Positions 1 through 12,178 of a stretch of DNA of 12,178 nt are shown here, in pieces. Both the position numbers and the translations under genes were made by a program. The DNA is from a virus. Its lineage: Duplodnaviria > Heunggongvirae > Uroviricota > Caudoviricetes. Every line of letters begins with the position of its first letter. The first letter of the stretch is position 1. The stretch covers positions 1 to 12,178 of IMG/VR virus record IMGVR_UViG_2778261086_000006. One strand, written 5' to 3'. The notes beneath the pieces are model-generated. The model had not been told where the DNA came from. It was given only the letters and a program-made list of their open reading frames with translations, and did no database searches.

Positions 1-1362
1 ATGTTTAAACCGGAACTCCTTTCCCCGGCGGGAACGCTGAAAAATATGCGTTACGCTTTCGCTTATGGCGCAGATGCTGTTTATGCGGGCCAGCCGCGTT
101 ACTCCCTGCGTGTGCGCAACAACGAATTCAACCACGAAAATCTTCAGCTCGGCATCAATGAAGCCCACGCGCTGGGGAAAAAGTTTTATGTCGTGGTCAA
201 CATTGCACCGCACAACGCCAAGCTGAAAACCTTTATCCGTGACCTGAAACCGGTGGTGGAAATGGGGCCGGATGCGCTGATTATGTCCGATCCAGGGCTG
301 ATTATGCTGGTGCGTGAGCACTTCCCTGAAATGCCGATCCACCTCTCGGTGCAGGCTAACGCCGTAAACTGGGCGACGGTGAAATTCTGGCAGCAAATGG
401 GCCTGACCCGCGTGATCCTCTCTCGCGAGCTGTCGCTGGAAGAGATTGAAGAGATCCGCAATCAGGTGCCGGATATGGAGATCGAGATCTTCGTTCACGG
501 CGCACTGTGCATGGCCTACTCCGGTCGCTGCCTGCTCTCTGGCTATATCAACAAGCGCGATCCGAACCAGGGTACCTGCACCAACGCCTGCCGCTGGGAG
601 TACAACGTCCAGGAAGGGAAAGAAGATGACGTTGGCAACATCGTACACAAGTACGAGCCGATTCCGGTGCAAAATGTTGAGCCGACGCTGGGTATCGGCG
701 CGCCAACCGACAAAGTGTTTATGATCGAAGAAGCCCAGCGTCCGGGCGAGTATATGACCGCGTTTGAAGATGAGCACGGCACTTACATCATGAACTCGAA
801 AGATCTGCGCGCCATCGCCCATGTAGAACGCCTGACCAAAATGGGCGTGCATTCGCTGAAAATCGAAGGCCGTACTAAATCTTTCTACTATTGCGCACGC
901 ACCGCACAGGTTTACCGTAAAGCTATCGATGACGCCGCTGCGGGCAAACCGTTCGATACCAGCCTGCTGGAAACTCTGGAAGGTCTGGCGCATCGTGGCT
1001 ATACCGAAGGTTTCCTGCGTCGTCATACTCACGACGATTATCAGAACTACGAATACGGTTATTCAGTTTCTGACCGCCAGCAGTTTGTTGGTGAGTTTAC
1101 CGGTGAGCGCAAGGGGGACCTCGCGGCGGTAGCGGTGAAAAATAAATTCTCCGTTGGCGACAGCCTTGAGCTGATGACGCCGCAAGGCAACATTAACTTT
1201 ACCCTTGAGCACATGGAAAACGCCATAGGTGAAGCGATGCCGGTCGCACCAGGCGATGGTTATACTGTGTGGCTCCCGGTCCCGCAGGATCTTGAGCTCA
1301 ATTACGCTCTGCTGATGCGTAATTTCTCCGGGGAAACCACGCGTAACCCACACGGTAAGTGA
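1..1362 (+). CDS. yegQ: Peptidase U32-family protein YegQ (TrhP-like), complete
   Basis: ATG at 1, TGA at 1360-1362, 453 aa. Contains the U32 signature E-I-F-V-H-G-A-L-C-M-A-Y-S-G-R-C (nt ~481-531). Length and sequence match my recollection of E. coli YegQ, which lies next to cyaR. Confidence 0.88.
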   Translation: MFKPELLSPAGTLKNMRYAFAYGADAVYAGQPRYSLRVRNNEFNHENLQLGINEAHALGKKFYVVVNIAPHNAKLKTFIRDLKPVVEMGPDALIMSDPGLIMLVREHFPEMPIHLSVQANAVNWATVKFWQQMGLTRVILSRELSLEEIEEIRNQVPDMEIEIFVHGALCMAYSGRCLLSGYINKRDPNQGTCTNACRWEYNVQEGKEDDVGNIVHKYEPIPVQNVEPTLGIGAPTDKVFMIEEAQRPGEYMTAFEDEHGTYIMNSKDLRAIAHVERLTKMGVHSLKIEGRTKSFYYCARTAQVYRKAIDDAAAGKPFDTSLLETLEGLAHRGYTEGFLRRHTHDDYQNYEYGYSVSDRQQFVGEFTGERKGDLAAVAVKNKFSVGDSLELMTPQGNINFTLEHMENAIGEAMPVAPGDGYTVWLPVPQDLELNYALLMRNFSGETTRNPHGK

Positions 1363-1396
1363 TTAATTTCGATTATTTTTCCCGGATGGAAAATTC

Positions 1397-1439
1397 TTAG
1401 AAACCGATCACATACAGCTGCATTTATTAAGGTTATCAT
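1397..1439 (+). promoter_or_regulatory. Candidate CyaR promoter: imperfect CRP-like site (TTAGA-N6-TCACA, 1397-1412) and -10-like TATCAT (1434-1439)
   Basis: Read directly upstream of the sRNA 5' end at 1447. CyaR is known to be CRP-activated. Left half-site is a poor match, so the exact site is uncertain. Confidence 0.35.
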
Positions 1440-1446
1440 CCGTTTC

Positions 1447-1533
1447 GCTGAAAAACATAACCCATAAAATGCTAGCTGTACCAGGAACCACCTCCTTAGC
1501 CTGTGTAATCTCCCTTACACGGGCTTATTTTTT
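1447..1533 (+). ncRNA. cyaR: CyaR (RyeE) Hfq-dependent small RNA
   Basis: Sequence GCTGAAAAACATAACCCATAAAATGCTAGCTGTACCAGGAACCACCTCCTTAGCCTGTGTAATCTCCCTTACACGGGCTTATTTTTT matches my memory of E. coli CyaR. It ends in a GC stem plus T6 intrinsic terminator and sits right after yegQ as in K-12. Confidence 0.85.
1507..1533. repeat. attL core: 27-bp direct repeat AATCTCCCTTACACGGGCTTATTTTTT, overlapping the CyaR terminator
   Basis: Identical 27-mer recurs at 11665-11691. Left copy is preceded by bacterial cyaR sequence, right copy by phage int-distal sequence. Confidence 0.85.
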
Positions 1534-1597
1534 ACGTACAACAAATTGAAATAAAAGGATTTATTTCTGGTCACGTCCACACATTGACCACATCGAC

Positions 1598-1622
1598 AAA
1601 AAAGCCCCTCGACTGAGGGGCT
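1598..1622 (-). terminator. Rho-independent terminator downstream of ogr (minus strand); potentially bidirectional
   Basis: Perfect stem AGCCCCTC/GAGGGGCT (1603-1610 / 1615-1622) with 4-nt loop GACT. On the minus strand it is followed by U6 (A-run 1598-1603 on +). On the + strand it is followed by TTCTGTTT. Confidence 0.6.
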
Positions 1623-1634
1623 TTCTGTTTGTAA

Positions 1635-1853
1635 TTACATCCACATAATTTGCTGCCCTGACGGCAACGGGTGTGGCCTTACGGCGTGGACTTCTCCCGG
1701 CTTCACGATGTATCGCTGTACCGACTCATAAGTGATGAACGTGGCGCTGCAATTCACGTTCTGACACTGGTGATAACGCTCTTTTGTCGTGTCAGTGATA
1801 TAGCGGCTTGTACGCGCATGTGCGGCATGCTGGCATAAAGGACAATGAAACAT
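1635..1853 (-). CDS. ogr: Ogr, zinc-finger late-gene transcriptional activator (72 aa)
   Basis: ATG at 1851-1853 with GGAAGAGGTG Shine-Dalgarno upstream. Protein MFHCPLCQHAAHARTSRYITDTTKERYHQCQNVNCSATF... has the Cys motif and matches recalled P2 Ogr / K-12 OgrK. The 93-aa track ORF is an upstream extension and unlikely to be real. Confidence 0.9.
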   Translation of the reverse strand: MFHCPLCQHAAHARTSRYITDTTKERYHQCQNVNCSATFITYESVQRYIVKPGEVHAVRPHPLPSGQQIMWM

Positions 1854-1934
1854 CGCGAGCACCTCTTCCGGTTTTATTGATGGTGCCATTTTAGTTAATT
1901 TATCCTTATAAAACAAACAGATAAAATAAAAACA

Positions 1935-3098
1935 TCACTCATCATCTTCTGTTTCGTACTCCACATCAGAAAGCCTGACCTCAAGCTCTAAAGACGTCGT
2001 GAAGCCGCTATTATTCAGAAAATGTGTCACCTTAGTGATTGTCCAGTCCTGCTCGTCTATGACGCGCTTAAAGCCTGACACTTTAACCGGTGTTTCCGTG
2101 TAAATATCTGCCCGACCGGTAGCCAGGCTGATGGAGAACTCCGCCACACCCCGTTGCAGTTTATCCCACTTCGCCTGAGCGGCGCGCATGGCCTGCGCTT
2201 TCGTGGCATATACCGTAGTCAGGGCAAAAACGTTGTCAGCCTCACCGGCCATGTATTCACCTTCGCGCGCTTCCGGTACTTTTGGCGCTTTCTTCTGCGT
2301 GACCGGTTTCGCTTTCGGGTGCTCCAGTGCGCGCAGGTGTTTTTCTTTCTTTTTGCGTTTCAGTTTTACCTTCTGCTTTTGCGGCTTCGGGTCTTTGGTG
2401 TGTAACCACTTTGCCGTTACGCCGGTGTAAGCTCCACGGTCAGCAATCGCAAAATGATGACGGTCGCCGTCGCTGCGGGTGATGGTAATCTGCGGGATTT
2501 TTTTACCGCTGGCCGTCACCCCCTGCCCCGCTTTGAGAAACAACAGTTTTCCCATTTTTACCGACACCTCACCGCCGTTGCGTTCTGCAAGACGGGTCAG
2601 GAATTTCGCATCAGACTCCTGCGACTGGTCGATGTGCGGGATTTTAATTCCGGCCAGTGACGGAGCGACACTGGCTTCCAGCCTGTTACGGGAGGCTATC
2701 GCTTCAACAATCGCACCGAGTGTGGTGTCATGCCAGGAGCCTTCCCGGCGGGAATTGAGCGTCCCGCGAAAATCTGCACTCCGGGCGCGGATGGTGACCA
2801 CATCCGGCGCGCCCCGGTGTTCAACCTCATCAACGGTGAATTTCCCTTTGCATACCAGGGCAAAACCTTTCCAGCCGATATACACCGTCAGGACAGCGCC
2901 ACGAACCGGTAGCCCGACCTGCCCGTCGGCATCGTTCAGTTCAATATCAAGCTGGTCAGCCTCAAAGCCCCGGTTATCCGTCAGGGTCATGCTCATCAGA
3001 CGGTCGCTGATATTGCCGGTAATATCCCTGCTGTCGAGCATCAGCATGTAATCCGGCGTCAGCGTACTGCCTGCATCAAATGTCAGTGCATCCAGCAT
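1935..3098 (-). CDS. D: Tail protein D (P2 gpD-like), 387 aa
   Basis: ATG at 3096-3098 overlapping the U stop. Length and position (between U and ogr) match P2 gpD as recalled. Confidence 0.82.
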   Translation of the reverse strand: MLDALTFDAGSTLTPDYMLMLDSRDITGNISDRLMSMTLTDNRGFEADQLDIELNDADGQVGLPVRGAVLTVYIGWKGFALVCKGKFTVDEVEHRGAPDVVTIRARSADFRGTLNSRREGSWHDTTLGAIVEAIASRNRLEASVAPSLAGIKIPHIDQSQESDAKFLTRLAERNGGEVSVKMGKLLFLKAGQGVTASGKKIPQITITRSDGDRHHFAIADRGAYTGVTAKWLHTKDPKPQKQKVKLKRKKKEKHLRALEHPKAKPVTQKKAPKVPEAREGEYMAGEADNVFALTTVYATKAQAMRAAQAKWDKLQRGVAEFSISLATGRADIYTETPVKVSGFKRVIDEQDWTITKVTHFLNNSGFTTSLELEVRLSDVEYETEDDE

Positions 3099-3577
3099 TA
3101 TCCCGCCCCCGTCATCCCCGTGAATCTGGTCGCCATACTGCCAGCTTTACCGATGAGCGATTCCGCCTGTTTACCGATATCGCCATAAAGCGCGGCCAGT
3201 GATTCATCAACGCGGGTGAGCGACAGCGTAAAATCAATTTTCCGGGGTGTGCCGTCTGCAAAGAAAATACTCCCTGTTTCACTTACCCTGCTGATGACAT
3301 ACATGCCGTAAATCATGCCGGTGCCATCCAGCAACGGCCACGCCCGGCCTTCATCTGCCATCAGCCTGAGCGTGGTCATCGTCAGCTTTCCGCCGGTCAG
3401 TTCGGGATAAAGCACACCGGCAAGCGTCATGTTTTCCTCACCCACACCGAGAAACTGGTAGGCCTCCCGTTTACCGATACGGGAATTTGACGGCCAGCGA
3501 TAATCTGATTCACGCTGCATGGTCTGGTGTGGCAGCGTCTGGCGCATAAAAACAAACATACCTAACGCGAGCATCAT
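3098..3577 (-). CDS. U: Tail protein U (P2 gpU-like), 159 aa
   Basis: ATG at 3575-3577. Protein MMLALGMFVFMRQTLPHQ... Length and synteny match P2 gpU as recalled. Confidence 0.8.
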   Translation of the reverse strand: MMLALGMFVFMRQTLPHQTMQRESDYRWPSNSRIGKREAYQFLGVGEENMTLAGVLYPELTGGKLTMTTLRLMADEGRAWPLLDGTGMIYGMYVISRVSETGSIFFADGTPRKIDFTLSLTRVDESLAALYGDIGKQAESLIGKAGSMATRFTGMTGAG

Positions 3578-3591
3578 TTTTCGTCACCTCC

Positions 3592-3903
3592 TTAACCGTC
3601 ATGCATCATGCTGGCACGGGCGCGCGCACGTTTATCCCGCTCGTATTTTTCGAGCGCATCCTGTAACTGGCGGTCAAGCTGTGTCCCCGGCGCAGTACCA
3701 CCCGTCAGGCTGATGTGATATTCGTTTTTACTCTGGTCCACATAAGAGCGGCCAGCCGGTGCCGTAACCGGCTGATAAGCCTGATAACCTGCATAAGAGC
3801 TGGTCGCCGGAATATAACCACCGGTGCCATACGTGGCGGCATGAGTCCTTGCGGCGGTCTGGTCAAGTGTGTCTGACTCTTTGTTGATAACCGTCGCGGC
3901 GAA
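3592..3903 (-). pseudogene. 3' fragment of tape-measure gene T (C-terminal ~103 codons, no start codon)
   Basis: Minus-strand frame translates to ...[41 protein letters not shown]...YHISLTGGTAPGTQLDRQLQDALEKYERDKRARARASMMHDG then TAA (3592-3594), directly upstream of U as in P2. The frame is closed by stops beyond 3904 and has no initiator. Confidence 0.55.
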
Positions 3904-4645
3904 TCAGCGTTGTGACGCCAGACTCGTTCAACAGGTCAGCATCGGTGCCGGACTCCTGCAAATCCCAGAATACAGATGCGCTGATGCCGGTAACACCGTT
4001 TACCCCGACGTTGGACAGCGTTTTATGCCAGCCCTGCTCCTGGTCGATTTTAGCGCGCAGACCCAGCGCACGGGCGGTGGCATACGCGGTGGCGGTGGTA
4101 CTGGTGACCGTATCCCATGCGAGGAAAACCGTAATTACATCGCCGTCGTAAGCCACACCACCGGCGAACAGGTAGCCGGGAATGTCCCGGGTAATGTTCA
4201 GGCCAATAAGATGACGGCTTGCAGGTTTGGCATCAGCAATCAGCCGTTCCATTTCCTGATACATTGCCTCTGTGATGCCACTTTCCAGTACACCAATATC
4301 AAGCCGGAAGGTGCCGGGCGGGTCACTGTTTTCCCACCACTCCGTCACGTTGATGAGATAGCCGAGCGGCTCCACCACACGCCGGATTGCACCGATAGTG
4401 CCCTTATGACAGTGGATGAAATAGGCATCGCGGATAACGGCGCGTTTTGTCGCTTCCGGCCACTTTTCATCCCACCTGTCGACCGAAAACGCCCACGCCA
4501 GCCACGGCAGCAGATTTGCCGGACAGGTATCCGGGTTCCACAGTTCACGAATCCTGACCGGCGTTTTTTCAATTTCCGCACAGGCTTTTGCGGCGGCAAC
4601 TTCAAGCGGTGATGAGCCGGTCGGCAGCAGTCGCGAATCACTCAT
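3863..4645 (-). CDS. Baseplate protein I-like ORF with aberrant C-terminal extension (260 aa); probable deletion-fusion product
   Basis: ATG at 4643-4645 overlaps the J stop. The N-terminal part ([26 protein letters not shown]...) resembles P2 gpI, which I recall as ~176 aa. This ORF instead runs 260 codons and reads into the T-fragment region in a different frame. Confidence 0.55.
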
Positions 4646-5546
4646 CCGAGCCTCCGGTCACGACGCGGTATTCGGTACAGAAAGACGCCTGCGTACTGTT
4701 GAGCACGATGTCGGCCAGCGGTGCAGTCAGTTCGACACGCTGCACGCCTTCCACATGCAAAGCGGCATAAATGGCAGACAGACGGATGTCGCGCCCCAGC
4801 CGGTGCTGTGCCGTGATGTACGCTTCCAGTTTTTTCACGGCAGCAGCGCGTATGGGTTCGCTTTCGGGACCAGGGTAAAGGTAAAGCGTGGCGTTTATCT
4901 GGTATTCAACGATGGCGGCAGACTGCACGGTCACGCGGTCGGCCACCGGCCTGACGTCCTCGCCATTAAGGGCGTTACGCACCACCGCCAGCAGGTCTTC
5001 GGATGCGACACCGTTATTTTCACGTGACAGCACAGAGATGGTGACGCAGGCCGGAGACGGACTGGTTACAGAAATATCCGCGACACGCCCGTCGGCACTG
5101 CGACCATGATACTGATAGGCCCCCACCGACCCGGCGACGCTTAAACCTTCAAACGCCTGCTGAATACGCAGACGATAATCCGTGTCAGATTCCATCACTG
5201 CCGGTGTCGGCGGGATGGTCGAATCATCTTCCAGGGTGATAATCAGGCGCGTGGTGTTGTAATTGGCACCAATCACATCAAGGTCATTACCGGCAGCACA
5301 GGCCAGCATCACCGCCCGTGCGGCCTCATTCACACGCTGACGCCAGATAAGCTCACGATAAGCATTTTCCTCCAGCAGTTTGACGAGAGGCTCAGATTCC
5401 AGCGTCAGGGTACGGGCGACCGCCTCCTGCTGGTCTTCCGGGTAAAGGGAAATCAGTGTCGCCTTGCGTTCGGCAAGAATGGTTTCAAAGTCCAGCTCCT
5501 CAACCACATCCGGTGCGGGTAGCTGGTTCAGGTCGATAATCGGCAT
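4638..5546 (-). CDS. J: Baseplate protein J (P2 gpJ-like), 302 aa
   Basis: ATG at 5544-5546. Length and synteny W-J-I match P2. Confidence 0.82.
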
Positions 5547-5550
5547 GGTT

Positions 5551-5898
5551 TCAACTCACAGGAATGGTTAACGAAAGTGGCTGGCCGGTGTCGTTGTGCT
5601 GGCCGGTTAACGTGACCGTCATTCGCCCGTCAAAACTGCGCTCAGTGGTGACGGATGACAGGGTGACGCGGGGTTCCCATTTCAGCACCGCCATGTAACA
5701 GGCGACCTTAATCTGCAACTCAAGCGCCGGGGTCTGCGGCTGGTCAATCATTGACGCCAGCAACGAGCCGTAATCACGACGCATCACCCGCGAGCCGACC
5801 GGTGTGCGCAGGATATCGCCGATACTCTGGCTGATATGCTCAAGGTCAGTGACAGTCAGGCCATCACTGCGATTCATTCCGAGATAACGCGCAGTCAT
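5551..5898 (-). CDS. W: Baseplate protein W (gp25-like), 115 aa
   Basis: ATG at 5896-5898 overlapping the V stop (TGA 5895-5897). Length and synteny match P2 gpW. Confidence 0.82.
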   Translation of the reverse strand: MTARYLGMNRSDGLTVTDLEHISQSIGDILRTPVGSRVMRRDYGSLLASMIDQPQTPALELQIKVACYMAVLKWEPRVTLSSVTTERSFDGRMTVTLTGQHNDTGQPLSLTIPVS

Positions 5899-6530
5899 AG
5901 AGGTCCCCCTGTTGTGCCGCCGCTGTCGCCGGGGTGTTTATGGGTATGAAGTACCTTACCGTTTGATGAGAGTTCACCGCCGGTGTGTTCAATGTTGCCG
6001 CGCATCGTCCCGCCCTTCTGCACTTCCAGCGTGCCGGTAATCAGCCTGTTGGTGCAGACCACCTCCGGTGTGTCCAGGGTGACGCGGGTTGATGCTTTCA
6101 CCATGACCACCGGCACCGTGGCGGTAACAGAATCAGAAGCCGTCACGCTGGCCGTTTTAATTCCGCTTACCGTAAGTGCACTGGTTTCGGGTTCATACTC
6201 AATCACCGCCCCGTCAGGGAAACGGATATGCAGGGCATCCGCCGACGCAGACGGCGGAGGGTTATCGCCGGAATAAATCCCCGGCAGAACAAACGCCGTG
6301 TCAAGTTCACCGCCCACGGCCAGAATCAGCACCTGCTCCCCCACGGAAGGTGCCCACCATGTGCACGAACGTCCGGCGCGATGGGTCAGCCACTGAAGCC
6401 AGTCGGTGCACATGCCGCCGGTCTGCACACGGCAGCGACCGGCTTTAAGGTTGGTTTCGACGACAAGGCCGGTACGAATCATGTTGCGCAGTGCGCGCGC
6501 GAGTTCCTGAATATTTGCGAGAGTGTTCAT
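5895..6530 (-). CDS. V: Baseplate spike/hub protein V (P2 gpV-like), 211 aa
   Basis: ATG at 6528-6530 gives MNTLANIQELARALRNMIRTGLVVETNLKAGRCRVQTGG... The track ORF start at 6566 is a TTG 12 codons upstream and is less likely. Confidence 0.78.
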   Translation of the reverse strand: MNTLANIQELARALRNMIRTGLVVETNLKAGRCRVQTGGMCTDWLQWLTHRAGRSCTWWAPSVGEQVLILAVGGELDTAFVLPGIYSGDNPPPSASADALHIRFPDGAVIEYEPETSALTVSGIKTASVTASDSVTATVPVVMVKASTRVTLDTPEVVCTNRLITGTLEVQKGGTMRGNIEHTGGELSSNGKVLHTHKHPGDSGGTTGGPL

Positions 6531-6607
6531 AACGGGAAGGATGCCGCTGGACGATACCAGCAGCAATCATGGAGGATTCTGTCAGCTGTGACACAACATA
6601 ATAAATA

Positions 6608-7363
6608 TTAGTTGTAGCACTTCTCTATAATCTTCATACACTCCTCATGAGCTAAATCATGGCTGTCAAATTCTTTATTAAAAAAGAAGAAAAACGCCTT
6701 CTTAACCTGAGGCATTTCAATAAAAATAAATTCATCAACCTTATGAAAGAAATGAAAACTCTTGTTTGATGTTTCAAAAACCATCAAAGAATTATGTTTT
6801 TTATCCTTCCATTTCGACATCAGATTGCGTCGCGATTTTCGTATAATCCTGAAGACATCCCCCGGCGTCGTATCGACATTCCCCCAAAACATTGCAACCG
6901 GAAAGTTTGCAAGGAACGGGATATAATCACCACCTTTATACCTGAGAAAGCGGTTCCGCAAATCCATTAATTGCAACTTAAAACCCATGTATTGCAACCA
7001 CCATATGATGCAATCATACTCATAATCTGTTAACTCCTCTCCCCTCTTTTCCGTAAGAAATTTCTTCAGGTTATACTCAAACACTCCCAGCAAATCAGAA
7101 TTGCACACTCTGCATGCTGGTACAGTGGCTTTAATGTAATGAGTTGACTGATTATTCTTTTTATTAATTAAAGATTTTTCAGTATTTGACTCAAAGGCCC
7201 ACTGAGGAATAATGTGCTCACGAGTAATATCGTCAGAACTCCCGCATAACACACATATATCAGCATTATGGTCAACAATAATACAATCCATAACTTTCTT
7301 TTGAGAGTGCTTTACTCTTTTTCTCAAAATAGAAAACTTTTCATCCATAAACACCCGTCTCAT
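6608..7363 (-). CDS. AT-rich cargo (moron) ORF, 251 aa: N-terminal Cys4 zinc-finger HNH-type nuclease motif plus ~160-aa C-terminal region of unknown function
   Basis: ATG at 7361-7363 overlaps the S stop (ATGA); TAA at 6608-6610. A sampled 60 nt (6621-6680) is ~32% GC against visibly GC-richer flanks. Motif C-V-L-C-G...D-D-I-T-R-E-H-I-I-P-Q-W-A-F...C-R-V-C-N fits the CxxC...DH-I-x-P...N...CxxC pattern of HNH nucleases. It occupies the S-V slot where P2 carries its non-essential moron orf30. Confidence 0.7.
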   Translation of the reverse strand: MRRVFMDEKFSILRKRVKHSQKKVMDCIIVDHNADICVLCGSSDDITREHIIPQWAFESNTEKSLINKKNNQSTHYIKATVPACRVCNSDLLGVFEYNLKKFLTEKRGEELTDYEYDCIIWWLQYMGFKLQLMDLRNRFLRYKGGDYIPFLANFPVAMFWGNVDTTPGDVFRIIRKSRRNLMSKWKDKKHNSLMVFETSNKSFHFFHKVDEFIFIEMPQVKKAFFFFFNKEFDSHDLAHEECMKIIEKCYN

Positions 7364-7818
7364 ATAACATCTTTCGATAGAATCACTAATAACTCCCTTT
7401 CTATCAATTGTATAGATTCCTTGTCAAAACCAAATAACTCACGAACAGGATATTCCACCACAGCACTATTACGCCCCGGCTTATCCTTAAGCCCTAATTG
7501 ATGTACTCGCGCAATTCGTTGCACTCCGCTGGCAAACTCCACCACCGCCGCACTCTCGCTACCTGTTGCTTTCATAAACCGGTTAGTGCGTAATTTCACA
7601 AACATTTCCCGCTTTATCCGGCCTTTCTTATTTCGCACTGGCTGGTTTTTTCTCGGTACATACGGCGTACCATCTGGGCCTTTTTGTAATTTAATTCGCT
7701 GCTGCTGGCGCTGGCGCAGTTTCTTCGCAATATCTACCGCCAGTCGCCGACGCCCTGACGGTGACAGCGACTCAATCAGTCCGGTCATCCGGTCTTCAAA
7801 ACGCTTAAACTCATTCAT
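7360..7818 (-). CDS. S: Tail completion protein S-like, 152 aa, with AT-rich 3' end
   Basis: ATG at 7816-7818 overlaps the R stop. Position between R and V matches P2 gpS. The last ~25 codons (nt ~7364-7440) are AT-rich, unlike the rest of the gene. Confidence 0.68.
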   Translation of the reverse strand: MNEFKRFEDRMTGLIESLSPSGRRRLAVDIAKKLRQRQQQRIKLQKGPDGTPYVPRKNQPVRNKKGRIKREMFVKLRTNRFMKATGSESAAVVEFASGVQRIARVHQLGLKDKPGRNSAVVEYPVRELFGFDKESIQLIERELLVILSKDVI

Positions 7819-8278
7819 CCCACTTGCTCACCAGTTCGCCATTGATATAAAGCTCCACCGGGCGGGTGACCGGCTCCGGCGGCGGAGGTTCCGGGATATT
7901 CTTCACATGCAGCGCACCGTCAACCTCACTGACCAGCGTGCGCTCGGTCAGCATCAGGCTGATACTGATATCAAAGCTGCTGTCATTGTTGATGTCTGCA
8001 TAAAATGTGAAGCCCTTTTTCTGGCCTTCGTCGGTGGTCATGATGTCGGGCTGATTTTCCCGCAGCCACGCCAGCACCGGCACGATGAGCAGGTCAAAAT
8101 CACCGGTAAAGTCGGTCACAATCACATTGAGCGTGTAACGCTTTTCGAATGACAGCGACGCCGCCAGTGTGGAGGCAATACTCCCGTTATCCACGAATAT
8201 CCGCAGCATCTCGGGGTTAGTTTTCAGCACCGTGACGGCATCAGTCAGCGCCCTGCGCAGGCTGTCGGGTTTGAGCAT
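7811..8278 (-). CDS. R: Tail completion protein R (P2 gpR-like), 155 aa
   Basis: ATG at 8276-8278 with AGGAAG Shine-Dalgarno 7 nt upstream. Length and sequence match recalled P2 gpR. Confidence 0.8.
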   Translation of the reverse strand: MLKPDSLRRALTDAVTVLKTNPEMLRIFVDNGSIASTLAASLSFEKRYTLNVIVTDFTGDFDLLIVPVLAWLRENQPDIMTTDEGQKKGFTFYADINNDSSFDISISLMLTERTLVSEVDGALHVKNIPEPPPPEPVTRPVELYINGELVSKWDE

Positions 8279-8340
8279 CGTTTTCTTCCTGACAGTGTTT
8301 AATCATTTTTACCTGGCTGGCACAACGTGCCAGCGCGTTC

Positions 8341-8502
8341 TCAAGCTGCCGGATAAGCTGCACGACGGGCAGCAGGTATTGGCGCGTCACACTCTTCGCA
8401 AACCAGCGCAGAAACACCGCAATGCTTTACCCTTGCCGCGTTAATCTGGCGCTCCAGTAATTCAGCCTGTTGTTCCTGAATAAAATCCACGTTGTCCGGC
8501 AT
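8341..8502 (-). CDS. Small TraR/DksA-type zinc-finger-like ORF (orf82 position), 53 codons, apparently truncated
   Basis: ATG at 8500-8502 overlaps the orf81-like stop. Translation MPDNVDFIQEQQAELLERQINAARVKHCGVSALVCEECDAPIPAARRAAYPAA then TGA. The CEEC-x-IPxxRR knuckle is present but the second CxxC is missing; downstream in-frame sequence (..TLCQPGKND) looks like a degenerate remnant. Confidence 0.4.
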   Translation of the reverse strand: MPDNVDFIQEQQAELLERQINAARVKHCGVSALVCEECDAPIPAARRAAYPAA

Positions 8503-8804
8503 TACCAGCTCCTTTTGTCGTTCAGTTTCTTAAATTCATCAGCGCAATAGCTGGCAATTTCAGCCGTTACTTTTGTCAGTTCGTCTACGGAGGAAATTTG
8601 CTTGTGAAATACAGCGCGTTTCACAAGTAAATTGACCACATCAGACAGGAGGTTTAATTCGTTCTGATAAATCGCGATAACAGATTCAGTTATTTCGTGT
8701 TTTTCTTTATCAAGCCTAAGTTGAATAAGAGACAAATCGCCATTTTTCATAACGGAGATTTTTAAGGCATTGTTCAGTAATACAATTGAACGAGAACAGG
8801 ACAT
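8502..8804 (-). CDS. P2 early-operon orf81-like protein (100 aa from ATG)
   Basis: ATG at 8802-8804 (the track start at 8807 is a TTG). Lies between the orf80-like and orf82-like ORFs as in the P2 early operon. Confidence 0.65.
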   Translation of the reverse strand: MSCSRSIVLLNNALKISVMKNGDLSLIQLRLDKEKHEITESVIAIYQNELNLLSDVVNLLVKRAVFHKQISSVDELTKVTAEIASYCADEFKKLNDKRSW

Positions 8805-9028
8805 CAAAGCACCTCCCCGCGAGACAATCCGATATTGTGAAATTTTTCCGACTCCTGACTGAGCAGCTCGACTATCTCCACGCGGGATAACTCCGCCTTT
8901 GTGATGTGGCGAATCATGGCGTCAAGATGAGAAGAAAAGCGCGTCGCTGCATCGGCCTGTGCTTCGGTTCTGGCCTGTTGCAGCAGTAATGCGTATTTAC
9001 CGCACTGATTTTCAGAAACTATATGCAT
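8804..9028 (-). CDS. P2 early-operon orf80-like protein, 74 aa
   Basis: ATG at 9026-9028. Position directly downstream of B in the early operon. Confidence 0.65.
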
Positions 9029-9091
9029 GACTTTCTCCAGGCAAAAAGAAGCCCCGCACGATTAAGTGCGTTAAAAACTCTGGTTAATTAT

Positions 9092-9592
9092 TTAATGCAG
9101 ATATTGCTCTGGTTTAACCGACGTCAGAATTGTCGGTGCATACTCAAACAGGCTGAATAATTCACGTAATGCACGGAATAAAGCATCACGCCAGTAACAT
9201 GACTCTTCATTAATTCGCCAGTATGGCTGGTTGAATTCTTTTTCAGTCAATCCGGCATGCATAAATAAAGTACGACGCTGACTGACTGTTAAAAAACTAA
9301 TATATGCATACTCACTTGCGCCAACCTGACGGCGTTTTGAGAATGCACCACGCAATTCATCAATTGCACATACCAGTCGTTCACGTTCGACGTCGTTCAT
9401 TTCTTCAAAACACATCGTTGCGTGACGCTGTTTTAACTGAGCATGGAAGCAAACCGTTAACCGTTCGCGCTCCATCATCTGATTATAATAATCGCATGTC
9501 TCCTGCCAGCGAGGGACGGCCAGATGCTTACCAATTATCCGGCGCATAGCTGCTGGCTGTTTTTCAACGAGATTGAGCGTCATCACTGTCAT
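9092..9592 (-). CDS. B: Replication protein B (P2 gpB-like), 166 aa
   Basis: ATG at 9590-9592 overlapping the orf78-like stop. Length and synteny cox-orf78-B match P2. Confidence 0.8.
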   Translation of the reverse strand: MTVMTLNLVEKQPAAMRRIIGKHLAVPRWQETCDYYNQMMERERLTVCFHAQLKQRHATMCFEEMNDVERERLVCAIDELRGAFSKRRQVGASEYAYISFLTVSQRRTLFMHAGLTEKEFNQPYWRINEESCYWRDALFRALRELFSLFEYAPTILTSVKPEQYLH

Positions 9593-9759
9593 TTCCAGAC
9601 CCTCCGGCTTTTCAGAAAGGTCAGAGCCTTTTTTAACGGACTCTGTTTTTTGGTGCGGATAATGATTCCCTTACGCCCCTTACCGTGGGTGATGGTGAAG
9701 TCAATCGCCCTGGGGCTTTCGTTACGCAATAACTGAGCAATACAACGAGGCTCATTCAT
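9589..9759 (-). CDS. P2 orf78-like small early protein (56 aa from ATG)
   Basis: ATG at 9757-9759 preceded by AAGGAGAA Shine-Dalgarno. The track's 64-aa version starts at a GTG (9781-9783) inside cox. Confidence 0.6.
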   Translation of the reverse strand: MNEPRCIAQLLRNESPRAIDFTITHGKGRKGIIIRTKKQSPLKKALTFLKSRRVWK

Positions 9760-9769
9760 ACGGTTCTCC

Positions 9770-10045
9770 TTAACGTGGTTCACCGAGACCTAACCACATC
9801 AACCAGCCGTCACGAATCTCTTTAGGACGGCTTTCATAAGCCAGTTTTAGTCCGTTATTCCATGCCGGAAGGTATACCCAATATTCACCAGCACGCCCCG
9901 ATACTGACTGAGGGTCAGTAATCTCAATAACTGGTAATTTCCCTTTCTCAATCATGCCCCTTACAGCTCTTGGAGTTTTACCAATGAGTTTTGCAAACTC
10001 CTGATAAGGCACGGCATCAGTCACGCTTACAAGCTGTCTATTCAT
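9770..10045 (-). CDS. cox: Cox, excisionase and repressor of Pc (91 aa)
   Basis: ATG at 10043-10045. Protein ...DAVPYQEFAKLIGK...GKLPVIEITDPQSVSGRAGEYWVYLPAWNNGLKLAYESRPKEIRDGWLMWLGLGEPR matches recalled P2 Cox. Divergent from C. Confidence 0.9.
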   Translation of the reverse strand: MNRQLVSVTDAVPYQEFAKLIGKTPRAVRGMIEKGKLPVIEITDPQSVSGRAGEYWVYLPAWNNGLKLAYESRPKEIRDGWLMWLGLGEPR

Positions 10046-10166
10046 CTGCTACGATTCTCCCTTAGTGCTTCTAATGGCTCCTAATGGCTAATTATTGCCT
10101 AAAAGGATAACTCCAGAAGCACAACATTTCACACTATCAGCAAGAAATTACGCAATCGGAGTAATT
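10046..10166. promoter_or_regulatory. Pe/Pc immunity-switch region between cox and C, with tandem 10-bp direct repeats CTAATGGCTC / CTAATGGCTA (10071-10090)
   Basis: Divergent cox and C genes flank this 121-bp region. The tandem repeat is read directly and is a candidate operator (C and Cox both recognise direct repeats in P2). Promoter hexamers not mapped. Confidence 0.5.
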
Positions 10167-10466
10167 ATGTCAATAGACGTTTCGGAGAAGTTGAAGCTAA
10201 TCCGTGAATCTGAAAGGTTAAACCGTAAAGAATTCAGTGAATTAACTGGTGTAGCCTACAGCTCACTTTCGAGCTATGAGAGCCGGTCAAAAAACGCTGG
10301 AGTTGAAGCCATAATGAAGGTCTTACAACATCCCAGATTTACTAAATATACTTTGTGGTTCATGACTGATCAGGTAGCTCCAGAAGCCGGGCAAATTGCG
10401 CCCGCTCTCGCACACTTTGGGCAAAACGAAACAACGTCGCCCCACTCCGGTCAAAAGACTGGTTAA
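10167..10466 (+). CDS. C: Immunity repressor C (P2 C-like), 99 aa
   Basis: ATG at 10167-10169 with GGAG 6 nt upstream. The C-terminal half (...FTKYTLWFMTDQVAPEAGQIAPALAHFGQNETTSPHSGQKTG) matches recalled P2 C. The 123-aa track ORF starts at an upstream TTG. Confidence 0.88.
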   Translation: MSIDVSEKLKLIRESERLNRKEFSELTGVAYSSLSSYESRSKNAGVEAIMKVLQHPRFTKYTLWFMTDQVAPEAGQIAPALAHFGQNETTSPHSGQKTG

Positions 10467-11798: not shown

Positions 11799-11860
11799 CC
11801 CACAGGTTCCGGCTACGCACAGCCAGAACGCGCATATTTGACGCTTACCAAAAAATATTC

Positions 11861-12178
11861 TCACTCTCCACATTTGAATGTCAGACGAGCGACACCATGT
11901 AATCCTACACCTTCTGTCTTCAGCTCAACTATTTGCATTTTTTTGCCCTGAGTAACACAGAAATGAGTTGCATCATTTTTTACTATATTTTCTGCACCAG
12001 ATATTCTACCCCTGGCTAAAGAAGCTTCGGCTTCGGTGTAGTATTGGTTATCGAGTTTACGCTGAATATTACTTTTATATGCAAGACCAAATTTACCGAT
12101 ACTTGTCTCATCATTATGCACAGCACAACCAGACATAATAAAAATACTAATTAATGATATAGCAGCTATCTTTTTCAT
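11861..12178 (-). CDS. yegR: YegR-like small lipoprotein, 105 aa, complete
   Basis: ATG at 12176-12178 (window edge). N-terminal signal peptide with lipobox (IMSGC). Length and position match E. coli yegR near cyaR/ogrK. Confidence 0.8.
   Translation of the reverse strand: MKKIAAISLISIFIMSGCAVHNDETSIGKFGLAYKSNIQRKLDNQYYTEAEASLARGRISGAENIVKNDATHFCVTQGKKMQIVELKTEGVGLHGVARLTFKCGE

Follow-up and report, generated by a model that had tools for sequence, protein, structure and literature searches.

We analyzed a 251-amino-acid (aa) open reading frame (ORF) that lies between the tail genes S and V of a P2-like prophage in a 12,178-nucleotide (nt) stretch of DNA, hereafter the window (IMG/VR record IMGVR_UViG_2778261086_000006), and found that it is a real gene under purifying selection that encodes a predicted ~29-kDa DNA nuclease of the HNH (His-Me finger) superfamily. 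In P2-like phages the ORF apparently forms the final cistron of the late O operon (...R-S-ORF), and it seems to be expressed late and not in the lysogen. The explanation that we tentatively prefer is a late-expressed nuclease that would act on the DNA of competing elements in the same cell; we infer its catalysis, the timing of its expression, and the nature of its target.

The ORF spans positions 6608 to 7363 on the minus strand and opens with an ATG, exactly as an earlier note on this DNA, made from the letters alone, had given it. Residue numbering here follows the 251-aa form from this first in-frame ATG at 7363, but the true start is probably the ATG at 7348 (M6; 246 aa; 741 nt), which is favored by the family alignment, by PGAP, and by the annotation of phage R18C. 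We consider this a real gene and not a chance ORF because its homologs form 44 clusters at 90% identity, nearly all of them from Enterobacterales, and because the ratio of nonsynonymous to synonymous substitution rates (dN/dS) within E. coli is 0.12 to 0.22, comparable to that of S and V. The protein is conserved over its full length across genera at 54 to 69% identity. The flanking genes are those that the earlier note had claimed, with gpS (Pfam Phage_tail_S, 1.8e-28), itself preceded by gpR, encoded upstream and gpV (Phage_base_V, 9.9e-20; Phage_spike, 5.4e-28) encoded downstream. The GC content of the ORF is 0.36, compared to 0.55 to 0.59 for the late genes R, V, W, and J. This had been described as the only compositionally deviant region, and it does contain the sharpest drop in GC content among the late genes, but five further segments lie at 0.37 to 0.40 (1351 to 1650, 8551 to 8850, 9001 to 9300, 10051 to 10350, and 11851 to 12150).

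The predicted HNH nuclease and its relatives

The gene and the two parts of its product have the following coordinates.

6608..7348, minus strand: coding sequence of the HNH protein, read from the consensus start of the family at M6, 246 aa and a stop (ORF list, family alignment)
7049..7255, minus strand: zinc-finger HNH (beta-beta-alpha-metal) module, residues 37 to 105 (invariant columns, HNH_5 matches of relatives, AlphaFold2 model)
6611..7048, minus strand: C-terminal ~145 residues (106 to 251), with predicted helices, a four-strand sheet, and a terminal helix

The HNH module is made up of C37-x2-C40, E49-H50, N70, C84-x2-C87-N88, and a helix with E96. The motif residues quoted in the earlier note (C37-x2-C40, EHIIP, and C84-x2-C87-N) are present and are conserved in alignments of 17 and 59 sequences: C37, C40, E49, H50, N70, C84, C87, and N88 are invariant across the 17 family members, and C37, C40, E49, P53, W55, C84, C87, N88, and W122 are invariant across the 59 superfamily relatives, in which H50 is retained in at least 90%. 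The cysteines C37, C40, C84, and C87 form two C-x2-C pairs of the structural-zinc type (invariant in 59 of 59). Pfam HNH_5 (PF14279) is matched by 43 of the 59 relatives (E ≤ 0.01; best 1.8e-7), while the ORF itself aligns with only the first 22 profile positions, at an E value of 0.012 and 16 bits (cutoff, 27.5). It resembles HNH_5 in the order C-x2-C...(D/E)-H...N...C-x2-C-N and in the modeled beta-beta-alpha arrangement, and it differs by a ~29-residue insertion between the strands, extra N-terminal helices, and the ~145-aa C-terminal domain.

The full-length AlphaFold2 (AF2) model, with a predicted local distance difference test score (pLDDT) of 77 and a predicted template modeling score (pTM) of 0.82, contains a strand at residues 46 to 50 (T47-H50), a second strand at 80 to 84 (T80-C84), and a helix at 85 to 105 (R85-E105), all of them blocks with pLDDT >90. 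The ~29-residue insertion between the two strands is a floppy segment of low confidence, and the isolated N-terminal module folds at lower confidence (pLDDT 66); the beta-beta-alpha-metal core topology is present at the level of this model only. Foldseek searches of PDB and BFVD returned no significant structural match for the model, and sequence and profile searches of PDB were empty; the weak BFVD matches were enriched in HNH-annotated phage proteins, which took ranks 3, 5, 7, 9, 11, 12, 18, and 33. We regard the HNH assignment of the ORF as likely. In the mechanism that we propose, a structural zinc would be held by C37, C40, C84, and C87; E49-H50, where the first strand ends, would act as the general base; N88, where the helix starts, would bind the catalytic metal with support from N70; and the N-terminal helices would pack on the HNH module.

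The score below the HNH_5 threshold, the poorly modeled insertion between the strands, and the lack of a significant structural match to any nuclease would also be compatible with a zinc-finger scaffold that does not cut and instead has a binding or regulatory role. We consider this very improbable, since very distant relatives keep not just the zinc ligands but also the putative catalytic residues E49, H50, and N88 with little or no variation, and retention of catalytic residues is not what loss of catalysis would predict.

The C-terminal ~145 residues are conserved as strongly as the HNH part in the family alignment, with W122, K129, Q131, F139, P149, P155, P167, S192, F203, F206, H207, and E231 invariant. 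Searches with Pfam found no domain in residues 106 to 251, and neither these nor Foldseek searches of PDB and BFVD identified a known fold or relative; NUMOD, IENR, helix-turn-helix (HTH), and AP2-type DNA-binding modules were likewise not detected by Pfam. The earlier description of the remainder of the protein (~160 aa there, ~145 aa here) as lacking a recognizable motif is thus borne out. Most likely, this conserved domain would select the target or gate the nuclease; as its fold matches none known, it may also bind DNA.

An exhaustive profile search recovered 35 representatives at E < 1e-30 and 888 at E ≤ 1e-3, many of the 888 being proteins of 300 to 360 aa that share only residues ~28 to 130 with the ORF; there are ~35 subfamilies at 50% identity, and the superfamily comprises ~900 representatives. 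The PHROGs entry for this protein is phrog_10503 (function unknown), and we found no published mention of the protein accessions or of phrog_10503. R18C is the sole carrier among 50,697 phage records; its ORF16 (QDP43509; 98.8% identity) is the same gene in the same position and orientation, although R18C is a viable lytic phage, in contrast to the deleted remnant in the window. The claim that the gene is undescribed therefore holds only in part: a 2019 report lists ORF16 as a rare moron without known function at the site of orf30, for which PSI-BLAST gave nothing, but it does not include the HNH assignment (PMC6823313).

Several relatives are found in other kinds of elements. One with 62% identity is encoded in an integrative and conjugative element (ICE) of Erwinia (L007), just after TraG and near an integrase and a KAP NTPase. 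A 260-aa full-length relative (L024) stands alone in an island that also contains integrases, BrnT/BrnA, and a CBASS operon; a 38% relative (L075) lies amid ThsB-type TIR, 8xMP, DUF4062, and T5orf172 genes; and a 338-aa superfamily member from Paenibacillus (L031) lies beside SduA_C (Shedu) and SLFN_AlbA_2 genes. The chromosomal context of a 41% relative from Bacteroidota is unremarkable. For two relatives of 300 to 360 aa (P0124 and P0157) and for the full-length family member P0045, the contigs were too short to reveal neighboring genes. The downstream neighbors of the relatives, compared among themselves, are unrelated to one another and reveal no conserved two-gene system. These loci show that the protein is independent of an S-V target and that it keeps company with defense genes. 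A PADLOC search (PADLOC-DB 2.0), which the earlier note had named as a check, gave no match of the ORF to a known defense system; the best similarity was to PDC-M01B (residues 14 to 59, E = 0.028), which is weak and not significant, and PDC-M01 is a candidate two-gene system. At a further locus (L023, 1531 to 3328), a 255-aa family member is directly followed by a 323-aa protein with an HNH_5-type motif of its own (1.9e-5), and this tandem HNH pair is near a Gp49 (HigB-like) gene.

Position in the late operon

The ORF is codirectional with S and V, and the elements around it in the window are as follows, with GC content at third codon positions given as GC3.

7360..7818, minus strand: gpS (tail completion/virion morphogenesis), variant allele (Pfam Phage_tail_S; alignments with the empty site and P2)
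7360..7518, minus strand: AT-rich 3' tail of S, codons 101 to 152 (GC3 of 0.31 versus 0.53 in the head)
7349..7359, minus strand: spacer of 11 nt from the S stop to the consensus ATG of the ORF (sequence; junctions compared in six loci)
6580..6598, minus strand: TGT...ACA element of the late-activator type upstream of V, starting 10 nt past the ORF stop (position and similarity only)
6542..6565, minus strand: conserved GC-rich hairpin with a 9-bp stem and a 6-nt loop, 3' of the activator-type site and 5' of the V start (RNAalifold)
5895..6530, minus strand: gpV (baseplate spike), true start MNTLANIQ at 6530 (Pfam, alignments)

The spacer between the S stop and the ORF ATG measures 11 to 13 nt in six lineages and therefore leaves no room for a promoter or a terminator between S and the ORF. 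We found no terminator between S and the ORF, and P2 has one after S. A consensus scan upstream of the ORF identified no sigma70-like promoter in the window, R18C, L003, or L013; matches in L008 and L011 were at background density only, and none was conserved over the six lineages. Beyond the ORF, the TTGTG...ACA element begins 0 to 13 nt after the stop codon across loci, and at empty sites it directly follows the S stop. The hairpin is supported by RNAalifold in six lineages (9 pairs, one double compensatory change) and is present in both ORF-bearing and empty loci (also in L003, L008, L011, L013, and L014) but absent from P2; it may represent an O-operon terminator without a U-tract or a leader element of pV. 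Because the ORF is inserted precisely between the 3' end of S and the promoter of V, it reads as the final cistron of the late O operon, and because it is codirectional with S, separated from it by only 11 to 13 nt, and without a promoter or terminator in between, we infer late expression. The protein would then be made together with the late proteins, whether on induction, in lytic infection, or through trans-activation of the late genes.

This late-operon wiring would also suit an accessory nuclease that serves the phage's own lytic cycle, for example by degrading host DNA or by trimming or debranching replicated phage DNA before packaging, and that is useful but dispensable, which would account for its absence from most relatives. 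Among the late DNA-processing enzymes of phages are His-Me finger nucleases that contain zinc, such as T4 endonuclease VII, and the co-divergence of the ORF with the phage backbone, purifying selection as strong as that on the neighboring structural genes, and the presence of the ORF in the viable lytic phage R18C all fit such a role. We nevertheless consider it unlikely, given that ~95% of E. coli P2-like prophages, as well as P2 itself, manage without the ORF, that Pfam Endonuclease_7 is not matched, that the ORF does not adjoin terminase or portal genes, and that relatives in ICEs and defense-type islands are ill suited to phage housekeeping. HNH proteins of the HK97 gp74 type in cos phages adjoin terminase or portal genes. 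We rejected a packaging-associated HNH protein as a candidate, as in intact relatives the ORF follows R and S, eight to nine genes downstream of the gene for the small terminase subunit.

Occupancy and history of the S-V site

Flanks of this type, S and V, were found in 1627 of 5426 complete E. coli genomes, and the HNH ORF was found in 77 of 5426, corresponding to ~5% of E. coli P2-like S-V sites. All copies of the ORF were chromosomal, and there were none on plasmids. We surveyed the slot in an evenly spaced sample of 35 two-flank loci from the 1627 genomes, which held the following between S and V.

Empty, with a 66-nt S-V spacer: 24 of 35 (~69%)
Insert of the size of P2 orf30: 6 of 35
HNH ORF: 2 of 35
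ATP-binding protein: 1 of 35
RelA/SpoT protein: 1 of 35
Other hypothetical protein: 1 of 35

A 414-aa ATPase cargo (L015, 1138 to 2382) corresponds to the PADLOC candidate PDC-S59 (6e-31), and a 359-aa cargo with a RelA/SpoT domain (L016, 1177 to 2256) corresponds to the PADLOC candidate PDC-S33 (6e-17), each on the opposite strand. All four other cargo types that we examined in E. coli and P2 are separate units on the strand opposite S and V. In IMG/VR, S is directly upstream and V is downstream of the ORF in 44 of 44 informative loci (homologs of at least 54% identity). Some phages have a second cargo between the HNH ORF and V (L059, L063, L064, and L067); the order in the L063 tandem is S, HNH ORF, an orf30 homolog on the other strand, and V, and the second cargo in L067 (3785 to 4828), which is codirectional, is a protein of 347 aa that has a membrane segment at its N terminus and matches nothing in Pfam.

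In P2 this slot holds orf30, as the earlier note had stated, and our analysis also answers its question of whether the ORF is simply an orf30 homolog. Homology was rejected, with a BLASTP E value of 0.47, the two genes on opposite strands, and both of them coexisting in L063; genuine orf30 homologs are readily recognized (99% in L017 and 37% in L063). P2 orf30 (NP_046770) encodes 261 aa on the opposite strand, between the annotated O-operon terminator and the pV activator site. The two genes are alike in their S-V location, their AT richness (orf30 has a GC content of 34%), and their nonessential character, and they differ in sequence, in strand, in the place of orf30 behind the O-operon terminator, and in the long hydrophobic stretches of orf30. 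The HNH ORF and orf30 are independent cargos. Nor is the ORF a conserved core gene of all P2-like phages, a possibility that had been raised against its accessory status; ~95% of E. coli P2-like prophages and P2 are without it.

P2-like phages have three classical variable regions, and the orf30 site is among them (PMC3091744); the earlier view of the ORF as horizontally mobile-looking accessory cargo in this region is supported. Published studies of P2 hotspots do not mention this gene, the S-V slot, or an HNH gene there; they treat the A-Q, Z/fun, and int-proximal sites or group loci broadly as "downstream of GpL." We regard the S-V site as a little-noticed fourth cargo or defense locus of P2-like prophages.

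The ORF does not stand alone in its composition or its inheritance. The AT-rich block sets in ~110 to 160 nt inside the 3' end of S, upstream of the ORF start, and an alignment of the S gene of the window to that of an empty site shows a match to the P2-type sequence over the first ~90 nt followed by divergence to the end of S; homology with P2 and the empty-site phages resumes ~45 nt before the V ATG. The complete variant 3' end of S was found in 79 genomes and the ORF in 77, with ~18 further genomes sharing only the middle of the allele, and the S tail motif IQLIERELL is common to ORF carriers in other genera. The S tail and the ORF are inherited as one cassette. A comparison of the window (7360 to 7730) with L014, L015, and L001 shows that gpS exists in mosaic alleles, in which the P2-type tail has a GC3 of 0.54 and the variant tails have GC3 values of 0.29 to 0.42, and the variant tail keeps its low GC3 although synonymous sites are saturated between genera. 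Carriers in Enterobacter, Kosakonia, a soil metagenome, and another genome have ORFs of 33 to 36% GC, S tails with a GC3 of 0.31 to 0.42, and V genes with a GC3 of 0.61 to 0.76. An AT-rich S tail is also present at L015, next to the ATPase cargo, which makes it less likely that this tail is a signal belonging to the ORF alone.

The AT-rich end of S is relevant to another explanation, in which the ORF is a single-gene defense or abortive-infection nuclease, as the earlier note had suggested, that is expressed in the lysogen from a promoter hidden in this segment and is activated on infection through its C-terminal domain. The candidate defense cargo in the S-V slot and the defense-like neighborhoods of relatives are in keeping with this explanation, and the low GC3 of the S tail (0.31 to 0.42 despite saturated synonymous sites) could hide a nonconsensus or H-NS-controlled promoter. 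We consider it distinctly unlikely, however: there is no conserved sigma70-type promoter (none in 4 of 6 lineages, and background density in the other two), the AT-rich S tail also occurs where the cargo lies on the other strand (L015), each of the other four cargo types that we examined in E. coli and P2 is a unit of its own on the opposite strand, and PADLOC gave no match. The known defense cargo in P2-like hotspots (old, tin, fun, and the systems of Rousset 2022 and Vassallo 2022) likewise consists of AT-rich accessory genes at variable loci, but these are located at A-Q, at G-FI, and near int/C as separate lysogen-expressed units, whereas the HNH ORF is embedded in the late operon. A classical lysogen-expressed defense moron is hard to square with this wiring.

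The ORF is an old, selected resident that has co-diverged with the phage backbone and was never ameliorated, and it is not a recent invader, because its dS within E. coli (0.045 to 0.11) is about that of the flanks (0.06 to 0.13) and because its identity between genera (54 to 69%) is no higher than that of R, S, V, and W. The only local irregularity emerges against R18C, where the window has a breakpoint exactly at the ORF/V junction, with a dS of 0.007 to 0.03 on one side and 0.08 to 0.11 on the other. Transposon-like insertion was considered and rejected, as we found only short chance repeats at the site and no terminal inverted repeats or target-site duplication. One E. coli prophage (L029, 6001 to 6730) has a frameshifted HNH ORF together with a frameshifted major capsid gene; in this case the ORF decays along with the phage and is not kept separately.

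Much of this genetic evidence bears on whether the ORF is a free-standing selfish HNH homing endonuclease, which we see as possible but not probable. Such an enzyme would cut the ORF-less S-V allele late in mixed infections or during co-replication of two P2-like genomes in a cell, repair from the ORF-bearing genome would copy the ORF together with the S tail (co-conversion), and the divergent S tail and interrupted junction would make the carrier immune to cleavage. Known free-standing phage HNH homing endonucleases include the T4 Mob proteins and I-HmuI-type enzymes, and the ORF is like them in being codirectional between conserved genes, present or absent, co-inherited with a flank, and partnerless. 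The HNH module itself, the insertion between essential genes without transcription signals of its own, the clean presence/absence polymorphism with most S-V sites empty, the near 1:1 linkage between the ORF and the divergent 3' end of S (77 versus 79 genomes), the fidelity to one site in 44 of 44 viral loci, and the recombination breakpoint at the ORF/V junction when the window is compared with R18C are all consistent with homing, for which a partner gene is unnecessary. On the other hand, there is no sign of recent horizontal spread, either in dS within E. coli, which equals that of the flanks, or in identity across genera, and the frequency of the ORF is still ~5% of E. coli P2-like S-V sites even though it is old. 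The ORF also differs from homing endonucleases in that Pfam detected no NUMOD, IENR, HTH, or AP2-type module and in that full-length relatives (38 to 62% identity) are found in an ICE, chromosomal islands, and defense clusters that do not contain an S-V target. Finally, the AT-rich variant S tail occurs with a different cargo as well (L015).

Possible roles in conflict and the setting of the prophage

Our preferred reading, a late-phase conflict nuclease, builds on the HNH module, the purifying selection, and the late-operon wiring, and it further draws on the S-V slot, which holds the candidates PDC-S59 and PDC-S33, and on the relatives in defense-like contexts; the low frequency of the ORF amid many alternatives, with 77 of 5426 genomes carrying it and ~69% of sampled sites empty, also argues for such a role. 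The nuclease would cut the DNA of a coinfecting or coresident phage, or of a satellite, and would thus serve in late-phase exclusion or defense and not as a constitutive barrier of the lysogen. Late-phase exclusion of this kind shades into the marker exclusion that is typical of homing.

A number of points weigh against this reading. A gene that is expressed only late cannot protect the lysogen, and known P2 morons work by protecting the lysogen. An HNH gene that is codirectional with conserved genes, squeezed between them, and present in some genomes but absent from others has the classic signature of a free-standing homing endonuclease. No family in Pfam, NCBIfam, or PADLOC is matched by the ORF above threshold, and a PADLOC candidate is matched by only 1 of the 59 relatives (a 315-aa protein; PDC-M01B, 9.7e-6). 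The defense-island contexts amount to four anecdotes with no background statistic, and no target, partner, or immunity function could be identified. Moreover, PO is deleted in the prophage of the window, and the action that the ORF has in intact phages may be absent here.

A more specific form of the conflict reading is a new single-protein system of a helper phage in the late operon, in which a nuclease guided by its C-terminal domain would destroy the DNA of a satellite or rival phage when the late genes fire. This would include the case of a P4-type satellite that trans-activates the late genes of a resident P2-like prophage. The ORF would then be an anti-satellite or late-exclusion nuclease whose relatives have been reused as stand-alone defense genes in ICEs and defense islands. 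Taken in this full form, we think the proposal decidedly unlikely to be correct.

Some 30% of E. coli genomes contain P2-like prophages, which have proven to be a reservoir of anti-phage systems. The S-V site, the third classical variable site, is usually empty; among its occupants are candidate defense genes and this HNH family, which has a novel C-terminal domain and is described by no curated library. Prophage cargo is not usually wired into a late operon, and this arrangement predicts action during lytic growth. If the protein is an exclusion or anti-satellite nuclease, it would represent a new architecture of effector and sensor and a new logic for phage-borne defense; should it prove to be a homing endonuclease, few such cases have been documented in temperate P2-like phages. 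We see the gene as a sensible subject for experiments and not as a surprise.

The window begins with yegQ and the CyaR small RNA (sRNA) gene, which are followed by the P2-like prophage in the order ogr, D, U, a gpI-sheath fusion, J, W, V, the ORF, S, and R, then a junction at ~8355, and then early genes (a DksA/TraR zinc-finger fragment, DUF5405, DUF2732, cox, C, and int). Matches of intact relatives are confined to positions 1 to 8355 of the window, and at ~8355 (junction region, ~8279 to 8502) R and a lysC stub abut the early-region DksA/TraR zinc-finger fragment. The prophage lacks its head and lysis genes, gene A, and the late promoter PO. With the head genes and PO lost, the prophage is a defective, decayed remnant, and the role that the gene has in intact phages may not occur here.

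Three further features of the window deserve mention. A 260-aa ORF on the minus strand (3863 to 4645) fuses gpI with a tail-sheath fragment (remnant region, 3577 to 4645). Between DUF2732 and cox, a 166-aa ORF (9092 to 9592) and a 64-aa ORF (9589 to 9783), both on the minus strand and without a Pfam match, occupy a region of 40 to 49% GC. At the edge of the prophage, between yegQ and ogr, lies a complete CyaR/RyeE sRNA gene on the plus strand (1445 to 1530; Rfam RF00112, 100.7 bits), which probably marks the attachment region of the P2-like phage.

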